Shown: positions 12,764 through 48,138, counted from the first letter of the whole stretch. The stretch: DNA of 63,954 bases, filler included, from Thraustochytrium aureum (GCA_012862495.1; 7 parts of 6 records of this genome joined end to end with filler, not necessarily neighbours in it), one strand, 5' to 3'. The notes: a model not told the origin generated them from the letters alone. Numbers and translations are program-made.

Positions 12764-15700
12764 ATGCCGCCAGGAGCGCGTTCACTTGGTGTTGCAGTGT
12801 TCGTGCTGGCCAATGTGCTGGCGCCACACACAGTGCGGGCAAACTCGGCGTGCGCTGCGCATGTTGCCAAGTCTGGAGACCAGGCCAGCACGCAAGGACG
12901 CACCCTCGTGCTCGCAGCCGGCGCAACATTTCCATATCGTCTCTACCAGGACGCGATTTTTGCATACGGCTTTGAGAACAACAATGTTGAAATCACGTAC
13001 GCAGCACTCGGTAGCGGCGGGGGGAAGTGCCGCATCATGAGCTACTGTGATGTCTGCTCCCACCCCTATAAAGACACAAGCCCCGGGACCGACGTCGCGG
13101 ATCCGGCAGCTGTGGATTTCGCCGGGAGCGACTCCCTTCTCAAGCCGGGAGACTATGAGGCCTACGACGACGTGCAAATGTTGCCTTCCGTGGCTGGCGC
13201 TGTGGTCCCAATATTCAACGTGAAAGGCGTTAGCAAGCTTGTTCTCAACAGTACGGTGGTCGCGCAAATCTTTCGCCGGTGCCAAGACGAGTCAGCGCCA
13301 AGCTGCAAACCAAACTCGATCAAGTCTTGGGCGGATCCCCGAATCCTGGAGCTCAACCCGCACGCCGAAGACGCGCTTCGGCAGGCTGGGGAGATTACTG
13401 TCGTCGTTCGAGCCGATGGCAGCGGAACGACCGAGGTATTTAGACGCGCCTTGAGCCACTTCGAGGATGCCTTTGCGGACCAAGTTGGCATCTCTTCGTC
13501 GTCGATTTGGCCCAACGTCAAGGTCTTGCATGCCAATTACAACGCTGGAGTGGCCGCGACCGTGGCGAGTACGCCGGACGCGATCGGATATTCAATCCTT
13601 GCCGAGGCCAAGACACTGGATGTCGGGTTGGCCATGATGACGAAATCCTCGACGCAAGTTGGCTTTGAGATCGAGGCATCAGCTTTGAGCACCAGTCTCG
13701 CCCTCATGGAAAAGGGCCTGGACTTTGGCAACAATGGTGACTTGCCGTCGCGCCTGACAGCCAACGTTCACGGAGCGGTCGGCTCTGGAGCCTGGCCAAT
13801 AGCATCGTACACTTACTTTGTCGTTCGGATGCGAACGACGCGCATTGGAGGGTCTTGCGCAGGTCGCGCAGCGCTTTTGAAGTTCTTGGAGTGGTTCTAC
13901 AGCAGCGAGGTTGTCGAGACACTCGCTGAGCGCCGAGGCTTTGCCGTGCTTCCGTCTGAAGTCCGCAACGTGGTCCTGGACAAAGTTCGGAGCGGGCTCT
14001 CGTGCAATGGACAGTTGCTCTTTTCGAACCCGGAACGAGTCCCGCTCATACTCCAGACTAGCAGCCTTCTAGAACCCCCAATGAGCATTCTGGCGACTGC
14101 ATATGGCGTTCTTGATTCCAAGACATCTCTCACGTTATCGGCACAAGAGGAAATGACGGTGAGCGAGCTCGCGAAGGTAGAGGGACTCGGGTCGGCGCCG
14201 TTCAGTAGTCCAAAGCTGCGCCTCGGCTTTCGCGAGACGTGGGCAGACGCAGCGCAACTGGAGAAGGATGGGGCGCTGCACATTCTTCCGCTCGTTGGTG
14301 TCGCTTGGGGCGTTTTGTTCAGTGTCTGCGGCGCGACCAACACGTCGTGCCAACAGGCAGAACTTGAAGTCACGTTGACACCAGATGGCCTTATTGGTCT
14401 CCTTACGGGGCAAGTTCTCTTCTGGGACGATCCCGCAATCGTAGCCACAACCGTAAGCGGCTCGGTGGTGGTCTTCCCTCACGAGAGCATCGTGTTCGTG
14501 CGCGCCACGGACGACATTGCACAATCCTGGGAAGCTCGCCTTGTCAGCCGATTGCGCGACCTCGGTGCTGACTTGAGCGTGACGAGCTTGCGCCGCGGCG
14601 ACGTCATCGTGGAGAAAGTTGACCATGCTAAGGCGCACGTGCACGCCACGCCATGGGCGCTCACTGTCGGGCCAATCGTTGGCCCGACTCACCTCCCTTG
14701 GCCTCCTTGCCCGCATTCGCGTGGACGAGGCTCCCGGGATCGCGCTGAGCGCGGAGACGATCCTTTCGGGAGAGTACCCCTTCGTAGCTGAGATTGCCGC
14801 GGCCTTCCCGATCGCCTTCGCCGGCCCAGAGTGCGAAAGCTTGGCGAAGACGCCTTGATTTCCGTGGGGCAGCGATTCGGCCGGCTCGTGTTCTGGCTCT
14901 TGGACAGTGCCACCCTCGCCGCACCACTCTCGCACGACAACATGGCATACTTGCCACTGCGAAACGCGTCCACGCTGGAGGCTGCAGAGAGAAGCCGGAT
15001 AGGCGTCAAGTGCGGGGGGATGAGCGTGATGCGCCCGGAGCACAAGCTCTCGACCCTCCCTCCTGCGGGGAAAATTGCTTTGCTGACAGCAATGACCGTG
15101 TTCCAGGCAGCGACACTTGGAGTGGCCTACGTCGTGGTCCAAAACCGCAGAACGGCCGTCATCCGACTCTCTACATGGACTTTCCTTGTCCAGATTTTGG
15201 CCGGGACGATAATTTCTTCGCTGTCGATTGTGCCTATCGTTCAGGACGACTCGGGGCTATTTGATAGCGTTGGGGACTATGCCGTCAGCCAAGAGGAGAT
15301 TGAGGCAGCGCTTGCGCACCTCGACACCGGCTGCACCTTGCTCCCTGTGCTTTTCTTTGTTGGGTACGCGATGGTCTTCTGCCCTCTGCTTCTGAAGACT
15401 TGGCGGATCAACAAGTACTGGCAACAAGCCACGAATCGCACCCGGCATCAAGTCAGCATCCCGACCTCGGTGCTTATCAAGTACGAGGTGGGGATAATTG
15501 GCACCGTTGTCCTGATTCTCGTACTTTGGAGTGCACGAGACCCGCTTCGCTGGGAGCGCGAGGTGCTGGCGGTAGACACGCTCACGGGCCGCCCCATCGA
15601 GTCCGTCGGGCGGTGCGTGTCCAGCTCGGCCATGAGTTACTTGGTGCCGCTCTTGTGCTTTGTGATTTTGACCTTGTTTGCGGGCACGTACCTCGCATTC

Positions 15701-16225
15701 AAGGGTCGAAAGGTGGCTGTTGCCTTTGCCGAGGGCAAGTGGATTGCGCTCGCACTGGCGAACTACCTCGAGTGCTTCGTCCTATGCCTGCCGATCTTGA
15801 TTCTGACAAGGGAGACCGCCGCAGCAGACAGCGCTGTCAAGGCAAGCTTTGTACTCCTCGTAAACACAGGAACCGTGGCAATCATCTTTGGCCCGAAACT
15901 GTTCATCATGGCGCAAGATCCAGACGGCAACATGTCGGGGGGTGCCAACGGGTGGAGCCAAACGCCTTCGAATCGGGGGAATGGTGAACTTCCGCAACAC
16001 GCGGCAGGGAAGCAAGGCCCTCGCGCGGGGCGGCGCGCTAAAGCGATGCAGCGCGTCGTACCAACGTCAGTTGCGCGCAGTTCCGTAGGAGGCGAGGTCG
16101 CCGCATTGAGTGCAGTGAGCACATTTTGCATCGAGGACAACGATGCAGAAGCAGAGGACCAGTTTGAGTCGAGCAGAGGCCATTTCGATGCCGCAAGCGA
16201 AAGAAGACGCCAGATGGCCTTTTGA
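12764..16225 (+). CDS. PstS-like phosphate-binding domain(s) fused to a class C (7tm_3-like) GPCR; two frameshifts near 14690 and 14850
   Basis: Signal peptide, then PstS motifs AAGATFP, YAALGSGGG, VDFAGSD, VVVRADGSGTT, AIGYS, GAWPIASYTY. A second degenerate PBP domain follows (LLTGQVLFWDDPAI, EYPFV). Seven hydrophobic segments carry class C motifs GYAMVFCPLLLKTWRI, FAEGKWI and IFGPKL. Confidence 0.8.
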
Positions 16226-16290
16226 AGAGAAAGAGCTTGTGCACGTGGAGCTGCGCCAGATGGCCTTTGAGAGAAGAGCTTGTGCACGTG
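16208..16290 (+). repeat. Imperfect ~40-bp direct duplication spanning the GPCR stop codon
   Basis: cgccagatggccttttgaagagaaagagcttgtgcacgtg (16208-16247) and cgccagatggcctttgagagaagagcttgtgcacgtg (16254-16290). Confidence 0.85.
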
Positions 16291-17471
16291 TTGCTGTGGC
16301 GGTGTAAATTACCCGCACGTCTTTTGGTCTTCCGCAAACCAGATAGATGGGTTTGCCAGTAGAGTAGATTAGTAGGTAGAGAGCACTCAAGTACTCTGTT
16401 CGAGCATGTACATTCATACTACAGCTTTATCAGCACACAAGTTGCCAAGCTGCGTCCTGCAAACGCTGCCAGTCCTCCAGAATCGGGCAGTTCACAACGT
16501 CGCTGATTTCATGATCTCAGGACTCGCTTTGTCGTACTAGCTCTAGAGCAACGCCAGGACCACCTTTTTCATCAAGAAACAACCGAGACACTTCTGCGCG
16601 NNNNNNNNNNNNNNNNNNNNNNNNNNNNNNNNNNNNNNNNNNNNNNNNNNNNNNNNNNNNNNNNNNNNNNNNNNNNNNNNNNNNNNNNNNNNNNNNNNNN
16701 NNNNNNNNNNNNNNNNNNNNNNNNNNNNNNNNNNNNNNNNNNNNNNNNNNNNNNNNNNNNNNNNNNNNNNNNNNNNNNNNNNNNNNNNNNNNNNNNNNNN
16801 NNNNNNNNNNNNNNNNNNNNNNNNNNNNNNNNNNNNNNNNNNNNNNNNNNNNNNNNNNNNNNNNNNNNNNNNNNNNNNNNNNNNNNNNNNNNNNNNNNNN
16901 NNNNNNNNNNNNNNNNNNNNNNNNNNNNNNNNNNNNNNNNNNNNNNNNNNNNNNNNNNNACCACACCATCAAGGGGGCTCTCGGCGACCCCAAGCTTGGC
17001 CGACGACACCGCATGCGGCGCGCTCACCGGAGCGGACTAGTTCTGTCCTTGAGGAGCCGTCTGAGTGGCATCACGGCGAGAGCATGGCGCATTTCTCGCC
17101 AAGCCCGAACACCGCGGAGTCTGGCGCAGACGATGAAGACGCGCCGCTCTTCCTGCACGAGCACCCCGAACCTGCCAGGCGCGTCTCTCGCTGACACCGC
17201 CACCGAGCTCTGGCTCGCACTTTCGCTGTTGATGACGCGCTGCGGCTGTGTCGTTTTTGCTGGTCGATGGCCAGCGTGGTGTCCCGGAAAACCAAGCGAG
17301 CCCCCTTGCGTCTATCGCAATGGCCTTGGTTGAGCTGATACGGCGCTCATACGGAGCAAGGATGGGTTTGCGCGCAAGGCAAGCGTACCGGCGGAGAGCA
17401 ACAAACAAAACACACTGGTTTTCAACCTCGAGGCGCCACGCCTCGAGGCACTCTACGCTGCGGCCTCGTCG

Positions 17472-28783: not shown

Positions 28784-30193
28784 CTATGATGCGTTCTTTT
28801 TACGACGCACTGCCGCAACGACACCTTCCACGAGATCCGGTTCGGCATCAAAGAATATTTGGCCGTCCAGCGCGAGGAGCTCAGGTAGCAATTTTGCCTC
28901 ATCCGCGCTTAGCCCTGGTTTTCCAAGGCGTTCTTCAACCTCAGACGCAGACGCCAGAAAGTGGACGATGACGGTGCCTTCAGTCTTTGCCTCACGTTCC
29001 AAGGCTACGCGGGCCTCGTTAATGCAATACTTCGAGTCAAAAAAGTCGACCAGGTTGACGATAATCAGGATGACGTGCGCTTCTTCGAGTGCGCGCTTCA
29101 TCTCTTTCGTAGGGTTGCCGGACACCGGAAGGTTTTTGGCGTCCAAGAACGGCTCAAGGCCTTTATTTTGGAGTATTTCCCGGAAACTGTTTGCGTCGAA
29201 CTTGTTGGAGCCGCGATGCACGATGAACACGTCGTAGTGGCGATTAACAGGAGCAGGACGGGGTGAAACCATGCCGCTCGTGGAATCTCCGCCGTCGTCG
29301 CTTGCACCAGTGGACCCTAGCCCACGTCCGGCTCTCTTCTTCTTACGCACCACATAAACGATTGGGCAAACGAAAACAGCGAGGACAAAGACACTACCGA
29401 CGACAATTCCAGCAATGGCACCAGGACCAATCGACGCTGCGGAGGCGTCGCTCTCGTCCCCGCGCAGTCCTGACGTCTCCGTCGGCGTGCTTGATGGCGC
29501 CCCAGTCGCTTGGTCTGCCGTAGGAGCGGTGCTGGGCGTTTCGGACAAGGCGGCGGTTGGCGAAGTGCTTGGCGAGGATGTTGGGGAGACGCTGGGCCGA
29601 GCGCTCGGTGAATTGGTCGGTTGCCGCGTCGGGCCACTCGTTGGGGCTTTGGTCGGGCCACGAGTCGGGGACTTGGACGGCCCGCGAGTCGGGCCTCTCG
29701 TTGGGGCTTCGGACGGCTCGGGCGTGGGCCGCGGGACCTGAATCGGCCCGCAATCCGTGCAGTCCGTGCCAAGTTTGAGCGGCTGCTGGGTGGGGTATCC
29801 GCTGCTATCGTCACATAGCTGTCCTGCGCCTGGAGGATCTGGGCACCCCAGGGCTCCGCTGTCTTCAACTCGCGTTAAGCCGTGCTCCGAGTATGTATCA
29901 AAGCACAGCTCAACAGTGGCTTCCGTTGCGCTCGGGCAAGTCCCGCACGTCACGGGACACTGGCGCCTAACGCGCACCCCGAAGTTGGAGTTCTCACCGC
30001 AGTATTGCGCGAGCTCCAAGCAGCTGTTGCCACCGCCTTCCCAATCCGGGCAATCGCTGCCAATATGGACAGTCGGCCTGCCGTTGTCACGAATGTGGTC
30101 TTCCCAACCGGGGCACCACTGCCCGACAGCATTCTGCTGCGCGAGCATCAGCGCCATTATCAGCAACAGCAGTTTCGTTCTCATCATCTTCAT
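28784..30193 (-). CDS. Receptor 1: signal peptide - ShK-like + Cys-rich ectodomain (type A) - PST stalk - TM - canonical TIR
   Basis: MKMMRTKLLLLIMALMLAQQNAVG signal; CLELAQYC...RRQCPVTCGTC; GTDCTDCG; PT/PS repeats; TM AIAGIVVGSVFVLAVFVCPIVYVV followed by RKKKR; TIR YDVFIVHRG...PFLD...VILII...FFDSKYCINE. Confidence 0.85.
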   Translation of the reverse strand: MKMMRTKLLLLIMALMLAQQNAVGQWCPGWEDHIRDNGRPTVHIGSDCPDWEGGGNSCLELAQYCGENSNFGVRVRRQCPVTCGTCPSATEATVELCFDTYSEHGLTRVEDSGALGCPDPPGAGQLCDDSSGYPTQQPLKLGTDCTDCGPIQVPRPTPEPSEAPTRGPTRGPSKSPTRGPTKAPTSGPTRQPTNSPSARPSVSPTSSPSTSPTAALSETPSTAPTADQATGAPSSTPTETSGLRGDESDASAASIGPGAIAGIVVGSVFVLAVFVCPIVYVVRKKKRAGRGLGSTGASDDGGDSTSGMVSPRPAPVNRHYDVFIVHRGSNKFDANSFREILQNKGLEPFLDAKNLPVSGNPTKEMKRALEEAHVILIIVNLVDFFDSKYCINEARVALEREAKTEGTVIVHFLASASEVEERLGKPGLSADEAKLLPELLALDGQIFFDAEPDLVEGVVAAVRRKKNAS

Positions 30194-30729
30194 CGCTGAG
30201 GTCCACCGCCCCGCCCCTGTCTTGGCCCGCGCCAGCTGATCAGGGTTTGCGTCGTCGGCAAGCTGCACTGGCNNNNNNNNNNNNNNNNNNNNNNNNNNNN
30301 NNNNNNNNNNNNNNNNNNNNNNNNNNNNNNNNNNNNNNNNNNNNNNNNNNNNNNNNNNNNNNNNNNNNNNNNNNNNNNNNNNNNNNNNNNNNNNNNNNNN
30401 NNNNNNNNNNNNNNNNNNNNNNNNNNNNNNNNNNNNNNNNNNNNNNNNNNNNNNNNNNNNNNNNNNNNNNNNNNNNNNNNNNNNNNNNNNNNNNNNNNNN
30501 NNNNNNNNNNNNNNNNNNNNNNNNNNNNNNNNNNNNNNNNNNNNNNNNNNNNNNNNNNNNNNNNNNNNNNNNNNNNNNNNNNNNNNNNNNNNNNNNNNNN
30601 NNNNNNNNNNNNNNNNNNNNNNNNNNNNNNNNNNNNNNNNNNNNNNNNNNNNNNNNNNNNNNNNNNNNNNNNNNNNNNNNNNNNNNNNNNNNNNNNNNNN
30701 NNNNNNNNNNNNNNNNNNNNNNNNNNNNN

Positions 30730-32890
30730 GTTTGAAACGCGCTTTGACGCCTCCTATCCCTGCTCCGACTCCCCCAAAACAAAAGACAGCGACGTCACCG
30801 GCAGCAACACTACCAAAGCCAAATGCTGAGGCACCTCCCACGCCGGCAGCGCCAAGGAGTGCTGGAGCGGCGAATCCAATCAAAGCACCAACAAGGATCC
30901 CTCCCGTCAAACGTGGGAACCTGCTCTGCCAGGCGCCTGGCGGCGTGATTGGGATTTTCCCTCGGCCAACGCCGTCGTCGCTATTGACCTTTGAAAGCCA
31001 CGTTTTGAAGGACTCGGTCTCGGCGAGAGCTTTGTGCTCGAGCGCCCACAGTTTCTCGAGCTCTTGCGGGAGGCTGGTGTCGACGGTGGAGGCCAAGCTC
31101 TTGGCTTGGACGCGCCAGGCACCTACCTCGCAGAGGACATGGAGCACCTTCCGTGGAAACTCGCGCTTGGCCGCATCCCCGCTGAAGAGCTTTCGAATTG
31201 TGTCCTTTATCCAACTCTTGAGCTCACTTTCTTGCGCCTTGCCACTCTCGGCTCTGACGTTGCTCAGCACCTCGTCAGCTTCGTCAAACCAAACCGGGAC
31301 CCCTGGGCGCTCAACGTTCGACCTCCACTCGGAGCCCTCCGCAGATACCCGCCAAGCTTTCACGCTTCTCAGGTCTTCAACTTTGTGCTCCTCCTGAGCG
31401 CGTTTCCATACGCACTCCAGAGACTTGCTCGGTGGGGTGAGCGCTGCGAGCGCAACGCTGGCGATGAGTTTGTTCAACATGCGCAACGCCGCGTCGCAGT
31501 TTGCGTCTGATGATTCAGCAGACGTAAAGGTGTTGTCCGGACCCCAATAGCCCCTCTTCGCGGCCAGGTCCTGGATTTCAGCGTCAAGGTCGCTGATGAC
31601 GCTCTCCCAAGCTCTAGCGACTTGGTTCGAGTACTTGCCGCCTTCTGATAGCTCCACGAGTTGGAAAAGCTCCTCCGACTCCGCGCGAAGTGCCTGGAGG
31701 CCCGCAAGCAGGGTGACCTCGCTTGGGCTTTCAACGCGAATGCTCCGCCAACGGTCGTCTGGCGTTTTTGGAAGGGAACCGTCGAGGAGGCCACGAAAGG
31801 TTGTCATTAGGACCGCAAACCGTGCCCGAGCCATACCAAAAACGAGCTCTTTCCAGAAGTCCTTGACACCTGCCAGCTCAGCAGTCTTTGCCGCAATGTC
31901 CTTGTGAGCCGCATTGGCTCTAGCTCGCTCAGCATTTCCGTCATCCCGGAAACCTAAAAATGACCATGGCCCAGGTACGCGCAGTCCCCACGTACCCTCA
32001 GACGGCTGTCTGTTGCCAGTGTAGTCCCTGAGGACGGTGAGCTGGTTGAGGAAGTGTGTCTGCTCGCCGCCCTCGAGGTCTGGGAGGAGAGAGTAGAACT
32101 TACGAATCAGCTCGCAGTTGGCGAGGTCGCAACCCCTGCATTGGCTGTTCAGGGCGTCCACTCCGCGAGTGAAGTAGAGCGACACCTTTCTCGATTCGAA
32201 GTGTTTGGAGAGGTACTCCTTGTTGTAGATTGTCTTTGCGTTGCTACTGACTTTCTCGCGCTCCCTCTGCTCCACTGCATCCATCTTGTTGATGAACACA
32301 GCGACAGACGCCCGCGTGCCAGAGCGGCGCACAAGCTCCGCCAATTCCTCGAACTTTGTTGAACCGACGTCGGTCGTCGGAATCACCATGGCGATCAACG
32401 TGGCCTTCTTCAGTTCTTCGCAAATGACGCCTTCTCGATGCTCGCGGCCATTCGCCTCGTCTGCGCCTGGAAGGTCCACAATCTCGACACCGCCAAGACG
32501 GAGGTCCAGGTAATCCTTCATTGGTTTCATGTTGGCTTCAATTACAAGCCGCGGGATCGTCGTCCTCCTGTTTTGATGTTCAATCCAGCTTCGTGGGCCG
32601 GCAGCAGGATCGACCTGCGTTCCTTGGGTTTCGCTTGGCCCTTGGCTTTCGATTGGCCAAACACGAAGCGTCGGCTCGCCTTCGACATGGCCCCTGAAAT
32701 GTCCAGCCTCCATACTTTCCACGTGCCGCACTAGTGTTACGGTGGCGGTTTCGATCATTGCGGCGCTTGGCAACAGGTACGCTCCGATAATCGCGTTGAG
32801 GATCGTACTCTTGCCGGCGTTCTGTGTGCCCAACGCAGCGATGCGGAGCACGGAGGCGTCCGCGTCGTTGTTGAAATCCAGTCCAACCAT
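30730..32890 (-). CDS. Dynamin-like GTPase of bacterial DLP/mitofusin type with C-terminal Gly-rich hydrophobic segment; 3' end in gap
   Basis: G1 IAALGTQNAGKSTILNAIIG, LLPS..ETAT (G2), IVDLPG (G3) and INKMD (G4), then a helical region and GGILVGALIGFAAPALLGAAGVGG. Confidence 0.8.
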
Positions 32891-33934
32891 CCTCGGTAGT
32901 GCCTGCGCGCCCCCGTGCTGAGACTCAGCAAAGCCTGGCCTGTACTAGTAGGTATCTGCTTCGCGATTTGCGTGCAGCAAGCCTCGCTCGCGATGCGGGA
33001 CTGCCGACCGCGCTGGGATGGCATCCTGGTTAAACTAGNNNNNNNNNNNNNNNNNNNNNNNNNNNNNNNNNNNNNNNNNNNNNNNNNNNNNNNNNNNNNN
33101 NNNNNNNNNNNNNNNNNNNNNNNNNNNNNNNNNNNNNNNNNNNNNNNNNNNNNNNNNNNNNNNNNNNNNNNNNNNNNNNNNNNNNNNNNNNNNNNNNNNN
33201 NNNNNNNNNNNNNNNNNNNNNNNNNNNNNNNNNNNNNNNNNNNNNNNNNNNNNNNNNNNNNNNNNNNNNNNNNNNNNNNNNNNNNNNNNNNNNNNNNNNN
33301 NNNNNNNNNNNNNNNNNNNNNNNNNNNNNNNNNNNNNNNNNNNNNNNNNNNNNNNNNNNNNNNNNNNNNNNNNNNNNNNNNNNNNNNNNNNNNNNNNNNN
33401 NNNNNNNNNNNNNNNNNNNNNNNNNNNNNNNNNNNNNNNNNNNNNNNNNNNNNNNNNNNNNNNNNNNNNNNNNNNNNNNNNNNNNNNNNNNNNNNNNNNN
33501 NNNNNNNNNNNNNNNNNNNNNNNNNNNNNNNNNNNNNNNNNNNNNNNNNNNNNNNNNNNNNNNNNNNNNNNNNNNNNNNNNNNNNNNNNNNNNNNNNNNN
33601 NNNNNNNNNNNNNNNNNNNNNNNNNNNNNNNNNNNNNNNNNNNNNNNNNNNNNNNNNNNNNNNNNNNNNNNNNNNNNNNNNNNNNNNNNNNNNNNNNNNN
33701 NNNNNNNNNNNNNNNNNNNNNNNNNNNNNNNNNNNNNNNNNNNNNNNNNNNNNNNNNNNNNNNNNNNNNNNNNNNNNNNNNNNNNNNNNNNNNNNNNNNN
33801 NNNNNNNNNNNNNNNNNNNNNNNNNNNNNNNNNNNNNNNNNNNNNNNNNNNNNNNNNNNNNNNNNNNNNNNNNNNNNNNNNNNNNNNNNNNNNNNNNNNN
33901 NNNNNNNNNNNNNNNNNNNNNNNNNNNNNNNNNN

Positions 33935-35450
33935 CCTCGTACGGCATTACATCGCCAACCCGAACGCGGTGATCCTTGTGGTGATCCCGATAACCGACGA
34001 CCTGCAGACGTCGGAGGCGATCCAGCTGGCGCGCGAGTACGACAGGCCGGGCGTGCGCACCCTTGGCGTCCTGACCAAGCCAGACCACGTTTTGGCAGAC
34101 TCGTCGCGCAAGGAGTTCATGGCGAGGGCACTAAAATCGGGCGGGGGCCCGGACACTCCACTCAAGCTCGGATACATCGCTGTTCGCACGCGCAAAGGAG
34201 ACGAGCACGGCCCGCTCTCGCAAGTCCTCGAGGCTGAGCGCACGCTTTTCAGCTCGGACCCTGTCTTCGGCCAGCTGGACAGGTCGCTATGGGGCATTGA
34301 GACGCTGCGATCGCGCGTACTCTCGATCCAATCCAGGTTTCTCCGCGCGTTTCAAAAGGGCTTTGCGTCCTCGGTCCAGGCTCGAAAGGGTGAGCTGGAG
34401 GCAGAGCTTGCTGAGCTAGGAGGTTTGGAGCCCGGGGAGGAGCACGACGTACTACTTGGGTTTTTCCGACGCCTGAACGCCGTCTTTGACAGGGTTACGA
34501 TCAGAAGGGAGAGTGGGAACATGCCGAACGCGGCGCTTCTTGGGATGCACTTCGACGAGGCTGCCTTGGAGTTTGGGCGGAACATCACCGAACGGATTTG
34601 CCCCACGCCAGGGTTTTTCAAGAACGACGAGGCGACGCTTGCAGACGTGCGGGCTCTGATCCAAGACCTTGGCTCCAGTGGCGAGTTGGACAGCCTCGGG
34701 GTGTTCAACAATGTCGTCCGGAGGCACATCGCGGAGCCCGCCAAGCAAGTCGTGGAAGAGTTTGTGAGGCAGGCGAACTTCTTTGTGCAACAAGCGCTAG
34801 GTGCGATTCTCGGAATGGACGACCTCCGCGCGCTGGCCCGCAAGTGCCCGAAGATCTGCTCCAACCTGCTCGAGTCAATCAGGGCCAAGGAAGCCGAGCT
34901 CTGCCAGAGCACGCTCGCGTTTGTGAACGACCTCATCGAGGCTCAAGCAGATTACGCGCGGTTTGGGAGAGACTTGCCCTTGGGTAGCGGCACTGAGATC
35001 GTCGGGCTCATCCAAGGCCTTGGGCTGGATCAGGAGACCCAACTCGTCAGCGCTGTCAGCGCTGTTTGCGGCCAGCCTGGAGCAGTCGTCTTTCGTGCGT
35101 TCATGAACCGCGTTGGGCGCGCTTCACCCGCGAGTTCCCCCATGGGAGACCGCGGGGCCGCGTGGATTTGCCACAAGCTTCAGTGCCGGGCAGAACGTGC
35201 GGTCGCCGCATTCGAAGAAATTATCCCTCGTATAGTCTGGCGCAAGCTCGTCAAAGGGTACGAGGCCGTCTTCGAAGGCCTCCAATCAGATCTCGCCAAA
35301 GACTCTGATCTGCGCAAGCTTTGGACCGAAGAAAGTGGCACTGTTGTCGAGGAACGCAGAGCTCTTGAGGATCGCATTAGTAGGCTGGGTCGTAGCTTGG
35401 AAAAGCTGGAGCAAGTCGAGTTGCGCAGCGCAATGCTCAGCTTGGTTTGA
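33935..35450 (+). CDS. Mx-like dynamin-family GTPase (N-terminal part lost in N gap)
   Basis: ILVVIP...TSEAIQLAREYD...RTLGVLTKPD (G4 with Mx-type TKPD), LKLGYIAVRTR, WGIETLRSR, helical middle domain and GED-like end (EERRALEDRISRL). No PH or proline-rich domain is visible. Confidence 0.8.
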
Positions 35451-41924: not shown

Positions 41925-43463
41925 ATGGCGCTGCGACGGGGCAAGCGGGGGGTGGTGGCAGCTGCGGCGGTGGCCACGCTGCGCTCTGGCTTGGCAGCCG
42001 CGCTGTGGTGCCCCGGATGGGAAGGCTATATTGAAGACGCGCCGTTCGCTACGACAATTGTCATCGATAGGCCTTGTCCAGCATGGCATTACGAATGGCA
42101 GGGGGAACTCGTGACTGCTGCAACGTGCTCAGAGCTCGTTAGTTACTGCAGCGAGCAGACCCCCCTCGGGGAGCGCGTTCGGCGTCAGTGCCCCGTTTCG
42201 TGTGGGTCCTGCCCGAGTGCGACGAGCTCGGTCGCCGACCTTTGCTTTGACACTTGCACAACTCGCGTTGAGGACGACGGCGCAGTGGGCTGCTCCGATG
42301 TCGCGCCGGTAGGGCTATGCGACGATGGTAGGGCGGGCTCGATTTCCACGGCCTGCCCTCGAGGGACCGACTGCTCCGACTGTGGGGTTGCTCTCTCCGT
42401 ACCGCGGCCGACGCCGCCGACCAGCTTTCCCACAGCGCATCCCTCAACCAAAGCACCGACGAAAAGCCCGTCACGTCGGCCGACCAAGTCGCCCTCGAGC
42501 GGCCCGTCACGTCACCCTTCCAAGGCCCCGACAGCAGGCCCGACGCGTCAGCCGAGCAGGTCGCCGAGCAACTCGCCTAGTGCTCACCCGAGCGTTTCAA
42601 CAGGCGGAACTTCCAGCGGAGCTCCAACTCGGGCGCCGAGCGCCGCACCGAGCGCAGCCCCGAGCGCTGCCCCGAGCGCTGCCCCGAGCGCCGCGCTCGC
42701 GTCGGGACAAGCAAGCAGGGATCCAACATCGGCGCCGACGCTTGGCCCGACGGCTTTGCGAATCAGCGAAGACGACCCCTCGGAAAGTCTCGGCGCTGGT
42801 GCGATTGTTGGGATCCTCCTTGGGCTTGCTTTGCTCGCTGCCATCTTTGCTTTTGTGCGGCGGAAGAGATATCCTTCAATTATCGCGGGCGAGAAATCGC
42901 AGCAGACTTCCTATGATGTGTTCATCGTGCACCGCGGTGATAACAAGTTCGACGCCAATATAGTCCGAGAAAAGCTGGAAATGCTCGAACGCCTCAGGCC
43001 ATTCTTGGACGCCAAGAGCCTGAAAGTCGGTGGCGACCCCACAGCGGAAATGCAACGCACCCTTAGCGAAGCACCGGTCATTTTGATCCTGATCAGCCTG
43101 ATCAGCTTTTTCGACTCCAAGTATTGCGTCCAGGAAGCCCGGACAGCCCTGGAACGTGAAGCAGAGGTCAAAGGCACAGTCATCGTTTACTTCTTGGGAA
43201 GTCAGGAAGAAGTCGAGGAGCACCTCAGAAAACCAGACCTCAGCAAGGACGAGCGAGAGTTGCTTCCCAAGCTCTTTGCACTCGATTCACAGAGGCTCTT
43301 CGAGGGTGGCGACGATTCCTATAGCTCTCTTTTGAAGCTCGTCGCTGATGCGGTGAAGCGCAATAAGAAGCAAAGGGCTGTCCCGAGCGAAATGCCCTTG
43401 GCCGCGACGGGCGCCGCGAGCGAACAAGGTCAATCTAGCCCGGTAGCGAGCTCTACAACCTGA
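41925..43463 (+). CDS. Receptor 5: signal - ShK-like type A ectodomain - stalk - TM - canonical TIR (complete, uninterrupted 512-aa ORF)
   Basis: LWCPGWE; RRQCPVSCGSC; GTDCSDCG; PSAA repeats; TM AIVGILLGLALLAAIFAFV followed by RRKR; TIR YDVFIVHRG...PFLD...FFDSKYCVQE. Confidence 0.9.
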   Translation: MALRRGKRGVVAAAAVATLRSGLAAALWCPGWEGYIEDAPFATTIVIDRPCPAWHYEWQGELVTAATCSELVSYCSEQTPLGERVRRQCPVSCGSCPSATSSVADLCFDTCTTRVEDDGAVGCSDVAPVGLCDDGRAGSISTACPRGTDCSDCGVALSVPRPTPPTSFPTAHPSTKAPTKSPSRRPTKSPSSGPSRHPSKAPTAGPTRQPSRSPSNSPSAHPSVSTGGTSSGAPTRAPSAAPSAAPSAAPSAAPSAALASGQASRDPTSAPTLGPTALRISEDDPSESLGAGAIVGILLGLALLAAIFAFVRRKRYPSIIAGEKSQQTSYDVFIVHRGDNKFDANIVREKLEMLERLRPFLDAKSLKVGGDPTAEMQRTLSEAPVILILISLISFFDSKYCVQEARTALEREAEVKGTVIVYFLGSQEEVEEHLRKPDLSKDERELLPKLFALDSQRLFEGGDDSYSSLLKLVADAVKRNKKQRAVPSEMPLAATGAASEQGQSSPVASSTT

Positions 43464-44961
43464 CGCAACTCGATGAAGACTGTTTTCTAGAATGCTGTGC
43501 GCGACCGCCGGGAGACCATGGAACGCGACGAGGCGCAGAGGCAAGAGCGTCAATAAGTCCGCGGCGTGACCAGACTTTTTAAACAGGACCCACGGCGGTT
43601 AAGAAGTGCTCTTGACCATCGGGCTCCTCCCATTCAAAATGCGAGAGCGGGAACCTGGTCAGTGGATAGGCGNNNNNNNNNNNNNNNNNNNNNNNNNNNN
43701 NNNNNNNNNNNNNNNNNNNNNNNNNNNNNNNNNNNNNNNNNNNNNNNNNNNNNNNNNNNNNNNNNNNNNNNNNNNNNNNNNNNNNNNNNNNNNNNNNNNN
43801 NNNNNNNNNNNNNNNNNNNNNNNNNNNNNNNNNNNNNNNNNNNNNNNNNNNNNNNNNNNNNNNTTTCCCTGCTCTGCTCGGCTTGCGAATGCTGTACCCG
43901 AAAGTGCCGGGCGGCGATTCCGCCCTCGAGTCTGCCGGCTGTTGTTCACGAAACTCGGCTGCTTTTGGCATTTTGAACGTCGGCGTACGTGCCGACCTGA
44001 TGCGATGCAAGCGAAACTCGTGGAGCGTCCCTGCTCGCTTGCGTCAAGAGGCTTCACCTAAAGCATCACGCTGACCACCCCTATTTCTCTCCATGCTTGC
44101 TTTTTAAATTGTGCTGTCCGGACAGCGTGCAAGTGCAGGCGAACGTATTCCCTAGCGACGGCTTTGGCGGCTCCCATCCCCACGTAGAGTTCGCATCTGA
44201 GTAGAGTACAACTGGCTGGTCCAACCAGCAGGGTCGTTGAACCAATCGCATGATCATGTTCGCTGGTGATTCTCGCCAGCGCCCCCTTCATTCTTGGCCA
44301 ACACCGCGACGCGAACAACTTGCGACCACGCAGGCACATGCAAGCTCGACTTCGGCGACACACGCCACGGGCAGGGCGGCCGCGACGACAGCATCGAGCT
44401 CGATGCTGCCAGAGGATGGGCATGTGGAGATGAGTGAGATCACAGGATCATCTGGGCATATTTTCCGACAGATCGACACTGTACCGACGCGCACGTCGAG
44501 AAAAAGCGCGCTCGAGCCATTCCTTGCTGTTCACAAGACGAGGTGGGCACCAACTAAACCGAGGTGTGTCGGTCGTTCGTCCGGGTGCATGGCGCGTGCC
44601 AGACGCGTTTGCTGTAGCCAGCAAAGGTAGGTACAACGTCGCCCGCAAGGCTCAACAGGGCCTCATGGATCTGCGCTTCTCGTGGCCCCGCGCGCGCTCA
44701 AGTGTCGCGCTCAAGTCTCATCGCTGGATGACAGAATCGCATCGCATTTTTCAACTGGATCGAGACGCATGCTGGCCGGCCGACGAACGGACTGCGTGCG
44801 GGTGCACGCAGTGCCCACCGGGTGTGGTAGAGCCGAATCTCGCAGAACTCCGTGGGGCAAGGCTCGCCGAGCTTGCGTAGCAGAGTCGAGACTCGCAGCA
44901 CTCCGCGGGCGCAAGGTTCGACCACAGGCGCCAAGCCGGCGTTGCAGACGGTAGACGGGGG

Positions 44962-46783: not shown

Positions 46784-48138
46784 ATGGGCTTCGGGTACGA
46801 CGACGCCGTGCTGCTCTGCTCGCCGCTCCAAAGCCAAAGCACTTGTAATGCGGAGGATAGCTGCCTCTGGGATCCGGGCGATGGCACATGTAGAGCGTCC
46901 GACTGGGTGAGGTTTTGCTCCTACGCGAACACGGTGGCCGACCCTGAAACGGAATGCAAGAAAAGCTTTCACTGCCAGTACACGCGAGTCGGTGGCCAAG
47001 ATGGCGTCTGTACCACAGCGCCGCGGCCTGCTGGCTGGGTCTGCGAGGCGCCGGCTTTCTTCAATGGTGGATGCGACTGCGGGTGCGGGGTGCGTGACCC
47101 TGACTGTTTTACTGGCGGGAGTCCATGTATTCATGCGGTCCGTGGGACCGCAATGTCGACGTCGAACTCGTTTGCGACTACGAGACGAACTCATGCGTGT
47201 CGAAAGCTCCAACCCCCGGTCCGTCTAGATCTCCGACCCGCGGACCGTCGTCAAGGCCGACCTCGGTGCCCAGCGCCTCGCCAACAACTACGCCGACGAG
47301 CGCGCCTAGCCACACTCCGAGCAAGACGCCAAGTGAGGCCCCCGCTGGGTCGACGCTGAGCCCGTCTAGTTTGTCGACGATCATGCCCAGCTCGGCGCCG
47401 AGCTTGGAACGCACTTTGGCGCCGAGCTTGGAACCCACTTTGGCGCCGAGTTTGGCTCCTTCTGCTCAGCCCAAGGTCTTTACTGGAGCCCAGGCAGGGG
47501 GGGAGCCAGCGCAGCTGAGTAGCGTTGGACTGGCGGCTTTGGGAGGGCTCGTCGCTTTGTTCGTCGTGGGGGCGCTTGTTGTACTCGGATGGTGGCGCAA
47601 GCGCAAAGGCCCCGTTCCCGTGGCGCACCCCTTGTATTTGATAGAGCCAACAGAGCCAGTCGCGATCCTGGCCACGGCCCAGCATGCGAGACTGGCTCGC
47701 GCAATACAGGGCTCCTTGAGTCAGCGGAGCGTGACGAGTCAGATTGAGCCTTCGAGAGAGAGAGGCGGCGTATCCGCCATCGAGCGCGCACAGCTTGCGC
47801 TGGTACTGTTTTCGTCTGCGCGCGAGCTAGAGGATGAGGGTTTCCGCGCGATGATGCAAGAGCTGCGAGCCCGGGCCGACGATGAGACCTTGCGCATTTT
47901 CCCAGTCTATCTCACTGCGTTCGAGCCGCTCGAAACTGCCGTTCGCGCTTCGGAGCACGCGGAAGCAGCGTCCTGGTTGTTTCGCGGCGTTACTGGGTGG
48001 GAGGCAGATCTCTTCGCGACGCCCAGCCTCAGCGACATGGTGGCCAAAGCCGTGGAGACGTTTTTTGCGTGCGGAGTGATTCCCGACATCAAAGATACCT
48101 ACGTGCTTTTCCACCGGGTTGAAGAAGATCCAGTCTAG
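46784..48138 (+). CDS. Receptor 7: type B Cys-rich ectodomain - stalk - TM - VTGWEA TIR-like domain; frameshift near 47120
   Basis: CNAEDSCLWDP, RPAGWVC, CDCGCGVRDPDC; APSLEPTL repeats; TM LAALGGLVALFVVGALVVLGWW followed by RKRK; PVAILAT...MMQELR...IFPVYL...WLFRGVTGWEA. Confidence 0.78.

Follow-up and report, generated by a model that had tools for sequence, protein, structure and literature searches.

Animal G-protein-coupled receptors (GPCRs) of class C, such as GABA-B, mGlu and CaSR, have an outer clamshell binding domain and a membrane part with a TM3-ECL2 cysteine pair, Lys/Arg in TM3, Glu in TM6 and PK in TM7. These are the class C marks named in the accessible text of PMC3727952 (TM3-ECL2 cysteines, a TM3 basic pair, a TM6 acid and a TM7 PK). 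The mGlu receptors are described as obligate dimers (PMC11730304), and CaSR is described as responding to phosphate through its own ectodomain (PMC6795806), a route different from the one considered here. Non-animal class C receptors with other heads are known, including Bmp, OpuAC and sugar-binding domains. The pairing of a PstS-type binding domain (Pfam PBP_like_2) with a class C seven-helix domain (Pfam 7tm_3) has been in print since 2012, when it was given for the chytrid protein SPPG_06488 (PMC3251606), and a supplementary figure of a eukaryote-wide survey also contains it (PMC3971589, 2014). In 2016 four Plasmodiophora brassicae proteins encoded by single transcripts were filed as putative phosphate transporters and, in the text available, called unique to that organism (PMC4815078). 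That paper answers the question of whether the architecture had already been reported in protists, on which the first-pass annotation of our locus could not decide. The term PBP_like_2 appears in the accessible part of PMC10445921 only in an abbreviation table, the main text of PMC4053784 leaves the ectodomain of 67 cyclases unnamed, and the running text of PMC12716839 and PMC13614923 holds nothing direct on the architecture. In the open literature, which here means freely readable papers and few of their supplements, we found no functional test of PBP_like_2 plus 7tm_3 proteins, no labyrinthulomycete report of them and no account of the PstS head as a shared module.

We analysed a 63,954-nucleotide stretch of DNA from Thraustochytrium aureum (the window), in which the first-pass annotation had placed a candidate phosphate receptor of this kind at 12764..16225 on the + strand. 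The ends of that interval held, with an ATG at 12764 that has no in-frame ATG upstream and a TGA at 16223-16225 that ends the frame of the seven-helix part; the single open frame between them did not, as described below. The start codon and a likely signal peptide occupy 12764..12841 (+, aa 1-26). The signal peptide that had been proposed is visible by eye as a hydrophobic stretch at aa 8-20 followed by small residues at about aa 24-26, and was left unflagged by a 19-residue hydropathy scan; the relatives P0002 and P0070 bear hydrophobic leaders.

The first large domain (domain 1; 12899..14023, +, aa 46-420) is a PstS-type binding domain. Pfam PBP_like_2 matched aa 41-382 (E 4e-20) and TIGR00975 matched with an E of 1e-49 and 169.1 bits, under the NCBIfam PstS equivalog cut-off of 205. 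The phosphate-site motifs claimed for this domain were located as GATF (aa 53), GSGGG (83), DFAGSD (118) and RADGSGTT (216). The domain matched 19 solved PstS sequences in the PDB at about 26% identity overall. An AlphaFold model of the ectodomain, built from the window piece 12884-14680 with 79 sequences, had a mean pLDDT of 91.6. In a Foldseek search with this model the first 18 listed matches were all PstS, with a target TM of 0.88-0.92 over the first 13, and the match to Yersinia pestis 2z22 had an E of 4e-26 and a target TM of 0.90; the predicted model of domain 1 thus has the type II two-lobed PstS fold.

The pocket of domain 1 is formed by T55, F56, S84, D123, R216, D218, S220, G221, T222 and N260, and at each of these ten positions the residue is the consensus one among the 49 bacterial PstS in our site alignment. 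Into this alignment went 182 sequences whose match to domain 1 was long and strong, and every one of the 49 bacterial PstS passed the intact-site rule applied to it. The selectivity aspartate D123 and the other nine pocket positions are unchanged at an overall identity of about 26%, so selection has preserved the site. Seven phosphate ligands of Xanthomonas PhoX, as given in PMC5439949, correspond to pocket positions of domain 1 when mapped through the PDB alignments. Almost all solved PBP_like_2 structures have phosphate bound, and two PBP_like_2 proteins also take arsenate and tungstate, according to the accessible text of PMC10443332. Judged from its sequence, domain 1 very probably binds phosphate. 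Bacterial PstS, including those of E. coli and Y. pestis and Chloroflexota lipoproteins such as P0014, have the same fold and the same ten pocket positions, whereas the head encoded in the window is fused to a receptor, duplicated, and bears cysteine-containing insertions (C89-C98, C173/C181).

Domain 1 is followed by a degenerate PstS-fold copy (domain 2; 14024..15031, +, aa 421-756 of the read-through protein described below). A profile built from 61 second domains aligned to domain 1 end to end with an E of 3e-47 and 16% identity, and a profile made from eukaryotic second domains only matched all 51 bacterial PstS in the set. The columns facing T55, S84, D123 and S220-T222 are variable in the 61 second domains and hold no replacement motif, and the Arg column has R in 10 of the 61. 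Across 56 proteins, the mean identity to the window protein is 0.19 for domain 2 vs 0.40 for domain 1. Domain 2 of P0070 and that of the window protein have a short loop and an SGEYPF motif in common. The suggestion of a second, degenerate binding-protein domain was therefore borne out by the profile-profile match, as a PstS fold that lacks the conserved pocket.

The membrane part (15071..15898, +) is a class C seven-helix domain of GABA-B2-like type, which bears out the class C assignment made at first pass. Pfam 7tm_3 matched with an E of 1e-35 and 123.8 bits vs a cut-off of 33.5, a hydropathy scan found seven hydrophobic segments, and the best PDB matches were GABA-B2 (E 8e-11). The C857/C951 pair, KTWR (878-881), E990 and GPK (1043-1045) are all present. 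Unlike animal class C receptors, the protein has two type II PstS folds in place of the ANF_receptor domain: Pfam found no match to this type I Venus-flytrap family in the window protein at E up to 1, and no nine-cysteine domain. By its sequence it would thus be neither an animal-type class C receptor nor the PstS of an ABC importer. For the full-length layout we used the relative P0002 as a stand-in; its model had a pLDDT of 86.7 and matched both PstS and the GABA-B helices (rmsd 2.9), and the orientation of the domains is uncertain because its pTM was only 0.58. The membrane domain is followed by a cytoplasmic tail of about 105 aa and the stop codon (15902..16225, +). The tail is not conserved, and alignments with relatives end at about aa 1047-1080. 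A direct repeat with 43-base spacing lies just past the stop codon at 16231-16296, its first copy starting before the stop as judged by eye.

The putative role given to the Plasmodiophora proteins offers another reading, in which the fusion of a binding domain with a seven-helix domain would give a phosphate transporter. One of the Plasmodiophora proteins, P0155 (PBRA_005806), has the same domain pair, a tandem head and an intact first pocket, and its first domain falls in the same group as that of the window protein; the Plasmodiophora proteins therefore belong to the same family, although they come from a different supergroup lineage and were read as transporters. In the text available, however, the transporter claim for the four proteins rested on homology only (PMC4815078). 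The membrane part has the fold and activation motifs of a class C GPCR and is no permease, and the same head also sits on a phosphodiesterase and on cyclases with a single membrane pass, proteins that cannot transport. We count the occurrence of this head on signalling outputs such as cyclases, a phosphodiesterase and RGS proteins in favor of a receptor, and regard a transporter as very improbable.

The window copy of the gene does not read through as assembled. The frame that begins at 12764 is terminated by a TAG at 14789-14791, which lies between two offsetting one-base indels (14692..14835, +). The plausible protein shifts to frame +1 for the stretch between about 14693 and 14835, and the original frame resumes afterwards. 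The frame +1 piece matches the relative P0070 (12 of 21 residues identical, E 2e-6) and is included in the alignment of domain 2 with domain 1, whereas the same DNA in the original frame gave no match to P0070 (best E 3). A contig from a public sequencing run (X1), which spans 13766-15089 at a depth of about 6, has one base fewer at 14692 and one more after 14835, leaving the frame open. Two other runs (X2 and X3) cover only short pieces, all outside the indel sites. With X placed at both breaks, the read-through protein is 1153 residues long. The assumption of an intron around the stop was rejected: many GT/GC-AG pairs are possible, each would excise conserved parts of domain 2, and the frame +1 alignment with relatives and the indels in the X1 contig also rule it out.

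Elsewhere, many substitutions and longer, multi-base indels set X1 apart from the window. Six of the ten coding substitutions between them are synonymous where 25-29% were expected (P 0.02-0.04), which is weak support for a gene under selection. Between 27088 and 47000 the window also differs from X1 by both substitutions and indels, and a second offsetting one-base pair was seen there at 44563/44645. The neighbouring gene has no frameshift across 627 aligned residues; the assembly is therefore not generally error-prone in this region. Taken literally, the window would hold a truly broken allele that encodes a 675-aa secreted protein (domain 1 and most of domain 2) or gives no product at all, in either case without a receptor. 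The in-frame TAG, the sound adjacent gene and the multi-base indels of X1, which are as expected of a second haplotype, speak for such an allele. Against it, the two indels cancel exactly and X1 has neither, the seven-helix part retains its motifs and an open frame, and the substitutions lean synonymous; moreover, the species keeps an open allele even if that of the window is broken. We consider a truly broken allele quite unlikely. Assembly errors or a minor allele probably account for both indels, and X1 may be another haplotype. Because the assembled frame is broken, the window's copy is a poor starting point for experiments.

The fusion of the two domains in one gene is almost certainly real. 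PBP_like_2 and 7tm_3 lie in one chain on contiguous window DNA, the X1 contig (13766-15089) is open across both indels, and full-length relatives are colinear. Among these are Hondaea fermentalgiana P0001, P0002 and P0101, annotated automatically as GABA-B subunit 2 or mGlu-like, and P0070, all of which have the same three-domain layout as the window protein and, unlike its assembled copy, open frames; P0001 and P0070 are 39-41% identical to it. A complete MMETSP transcript, P0004, encodes both domains. Separate genes for the PstS and seven-helix parts are ruled out by the full-length relatives. A bacterial contig or chimera is ruled out by the eukaryotic neighbours, which include a splicing factor, a kinase, a P-type ATPase, dynamins and a myosin. 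The nine best matches of the nearby P5A ATPase are 47-61% identical (Hondaea, 57%) and score well above the remaining ones. Hondaea fermentalgiana, a thraustochytrid, is also among the best named matches of the receptor (39-40% identity), and a labyrinthulomycete host is likely on this evidence. None of the 28 window ORFs scanned, some of them eukaryotic housekeeping genes, encodes PstC, PstA or PstB. PT repeats with a TIR domain occur in two ORFs and PT repeats in a third (28787-30271, -; 41925-43460, +; 47104-48135, +), and two dynamin-like ORFs point apart (30731-32944, -; 33936-35447, +).

To place the head in its family we searched 1.84 billion proteins with a profile of five ectodomains and obtained 808 matches at E up to 1e-30. 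The best 150 of these included 141 new proteins, of which the 99 of at least 640 aa were scanned with Pfam and the 42 shorter ones left out. A 7tm_3 domain was found in 45 of the 99. Other outputs were a nucleotide cyclase (11), a glutaminase (2), a phosphodiesterase (1), a PARP (1) and RGS alone (1); six proteins have a cysteine-rich stalk (Ephrin_rec_like or DUF7630) without 7tm_3, two of them with TRP, and most of the rest contain only the binding domain. With six proteins from other searches, 51 carry 7tm_3, and 48 of these have a second domain, in a set gathered with a query that favoured tandem forms. Most members are unnamed; the others come from Hondaea, Plasmodiophora, Euglena longa, Euglena gracilis, Tetraselmis, Ostreococcus, Cymbomonas, Hanusia, Diacronema, Chromosphaera and the annelid Owenia. 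An ESM Atlas search with P0070 gave clusters holding both Pfam families at 0.97-0.98. The chytrid protein SPPG_06488 has the same domain pair by description and was merely listed in its source.

Several family members have unusual layouts. P0190 combines the binding domain, 7tm_3, RGS and G-alpha in one chain with a drifted pocket, and in P0207 an intact head is combined with several membrane helices and RGS. P0200 from Owenia fusiformis (CAH1793096.1), encoded on a 39 Mb contig, is a receptor guanylyl cyclase with a single PstS head, one membrane helix, a kinase-like domain and a cyclase. Its head retains all ten pocket positions (SFSDRDSGTN), making it a candidate phosphate-gated cyclase in an animal; the unnamed proteins P0182 and P0180 are similar. 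The same head occurs in P0122 (from a cluster with Ostreococcus tauri), P0082 (Euglena gracilis), P0088 (Tetraselmis astigmatica), P0067 (Chromosphaera perkinsii), P0163, P0003 and P0007, whose outputs comprise cyclases, a phosphodiesterase, TRP-like, glutaminase, MHYT and nucleoside-hydrolase-like domains. P0122, P0088 and P0067 have an intact pocket, and that of P0082 and P0003 has drifted. In O. tauri, the reference models P0369 and P0370 appear to be split inside the head. Two proteins labelled Batrachochytrium salamandrivorans (BASA81), P0089 and P0213, nevertheless group with the window protein and its Hondaea relatives, and their label may come from a contaminated assembly.

Pocket conservation within the family bears on whether phosphate is the signal. 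Of the 51 proteins with 7tm_3, 43 are in the site alignment and 36 cover all ten columns; 20 of these 36 keep the pocket and 16, P0190 among them, have changed residues; the site can therefore be lost within the family. The window protein might be a receptor for which phosphate is not the signal, with a pocket that is always filled or that takes a related ligand such as a phosphorylated compound or another oxyanion; it might also signal without a G protein, or act in a heterodimer as the silent partner. Bacterial PstS proteins bind their ligand tightly, at micromolar concentrations or below, and a pocket of this kind could be saturated. The seven-helix part is nearest to GABA-B2, which works in a heterodimer. 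The drifted pockets of the 16 paralogues and the arsenate and tungstate taken by two PBP_like_2 proteins (PMC10443332) point the same way. The window protein itself, however, has all ten pocket positions unchanged, D123 included, at its low identity to solved PstS, and we regard this alternative as unlikely without being negligible.

We examined the origin of the head with a quick IQ-TREE run on 72 hand-picked first domains, 43 of them receptor-linked and 29 taken as prokaryotic. The 43 receptor-linked domains formed one group (SH-aLRT 93, not starred), which joined 13 PstS of one bacterial group at 100. FastTree, with 165 of the 182 alignment rows, gave the same neighbourhood with a less resolved base and one receptor row outside. 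P0014, a member of that bacterial group, has relatives at 65-68% identity in four Chloroflexota genomes, and in all three Chloroflexota loci scanned the PstS gene is followed by pstC, pstA and pstB. The C365/C414 pair is found in 20 of 20 Chloroflexota-like PstS and in 0 of 29 other bacterial rows; C365 and C414 occur in 113 and 111, respectively, of the 133 rows not labelled bacterial. In this sample, where bacteria were collected by likeness to the query, archaeal PstS were left out and the Chloroflexota label comes from four loci, Chloroflexota-like PstS is the nearest prokaryotic group. These results suggest a Chloroflexota-like bacterial donor of the head and support the earlier idea of a co-opted bacterial module.

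Our preferred reading is that the gene encodes a cell-surface GPCR that senses phosphate, and we give the mechanism as a whole a probability of about 0.6. Judged from its pocket and fold, domain 1 would bring its two lobes together on phosphate, the way bacterial PstS does. Domain 2, having lost its pocket, may act as a rigid spacer that relays the movement, in a position filled in animal class C receptors by the cysteine-rich domain or stalk. In what is probably a dimer, the helices would then rearrange and load G-alpha, by analogy with known class C receptors. G-alpha and GPCR domains are described as enriched in thraustochytrid genomes (PMC6050695). Domain 1 is set apart from the membrane by the whole of domain 2, and this would count against a relay of closure. 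The reading made at first pass of a phosphate-sensing GPCR thus stands in that sequence, fold and family evidence point to a class C receptor whose head derives from PstS and probably binds phosphate; it had missed the broken frame.

The domain pairing is already known, and the window protein adds another member. What is added here is that the PstS head belongs to a wide family with varied signalling outputs, far wider than the earlier papers state, and that its first domains lie beside PstS of Chloroflexota pst operons. More tentatively, and at somewhat less than even odds, eukaryotes may have a widespread, so far unrecognised class of extracellular phosphate receptors. In this class a single PstS acquired from a Chloroflexota-like bacterium would have become the sensor, in most cases together with a dead second copy, and would have been joined to class C GPCRs, nucleotide cyclases, a phosphodiesterase, glutaminases, TRP-like and RGS proteins in stramenopiles, Rhizaria, euglenids, green algae, an ichthyosporean and an annelid; the window gene would be, under the same joint reading, the GPCR form. 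The sensing of phosphate outside the cell by eukaryotes is still debated in the literature available to us. A PstS head with an intact pocket speaks to such sensing directly and is cheaply testable, and family members occur in culturable Hondaea, Euglena gracilis, Ostreococcus tauri and Tetraselmis. If true, this reading would bear on nutrient sensing in plankton and in decomposer protists.
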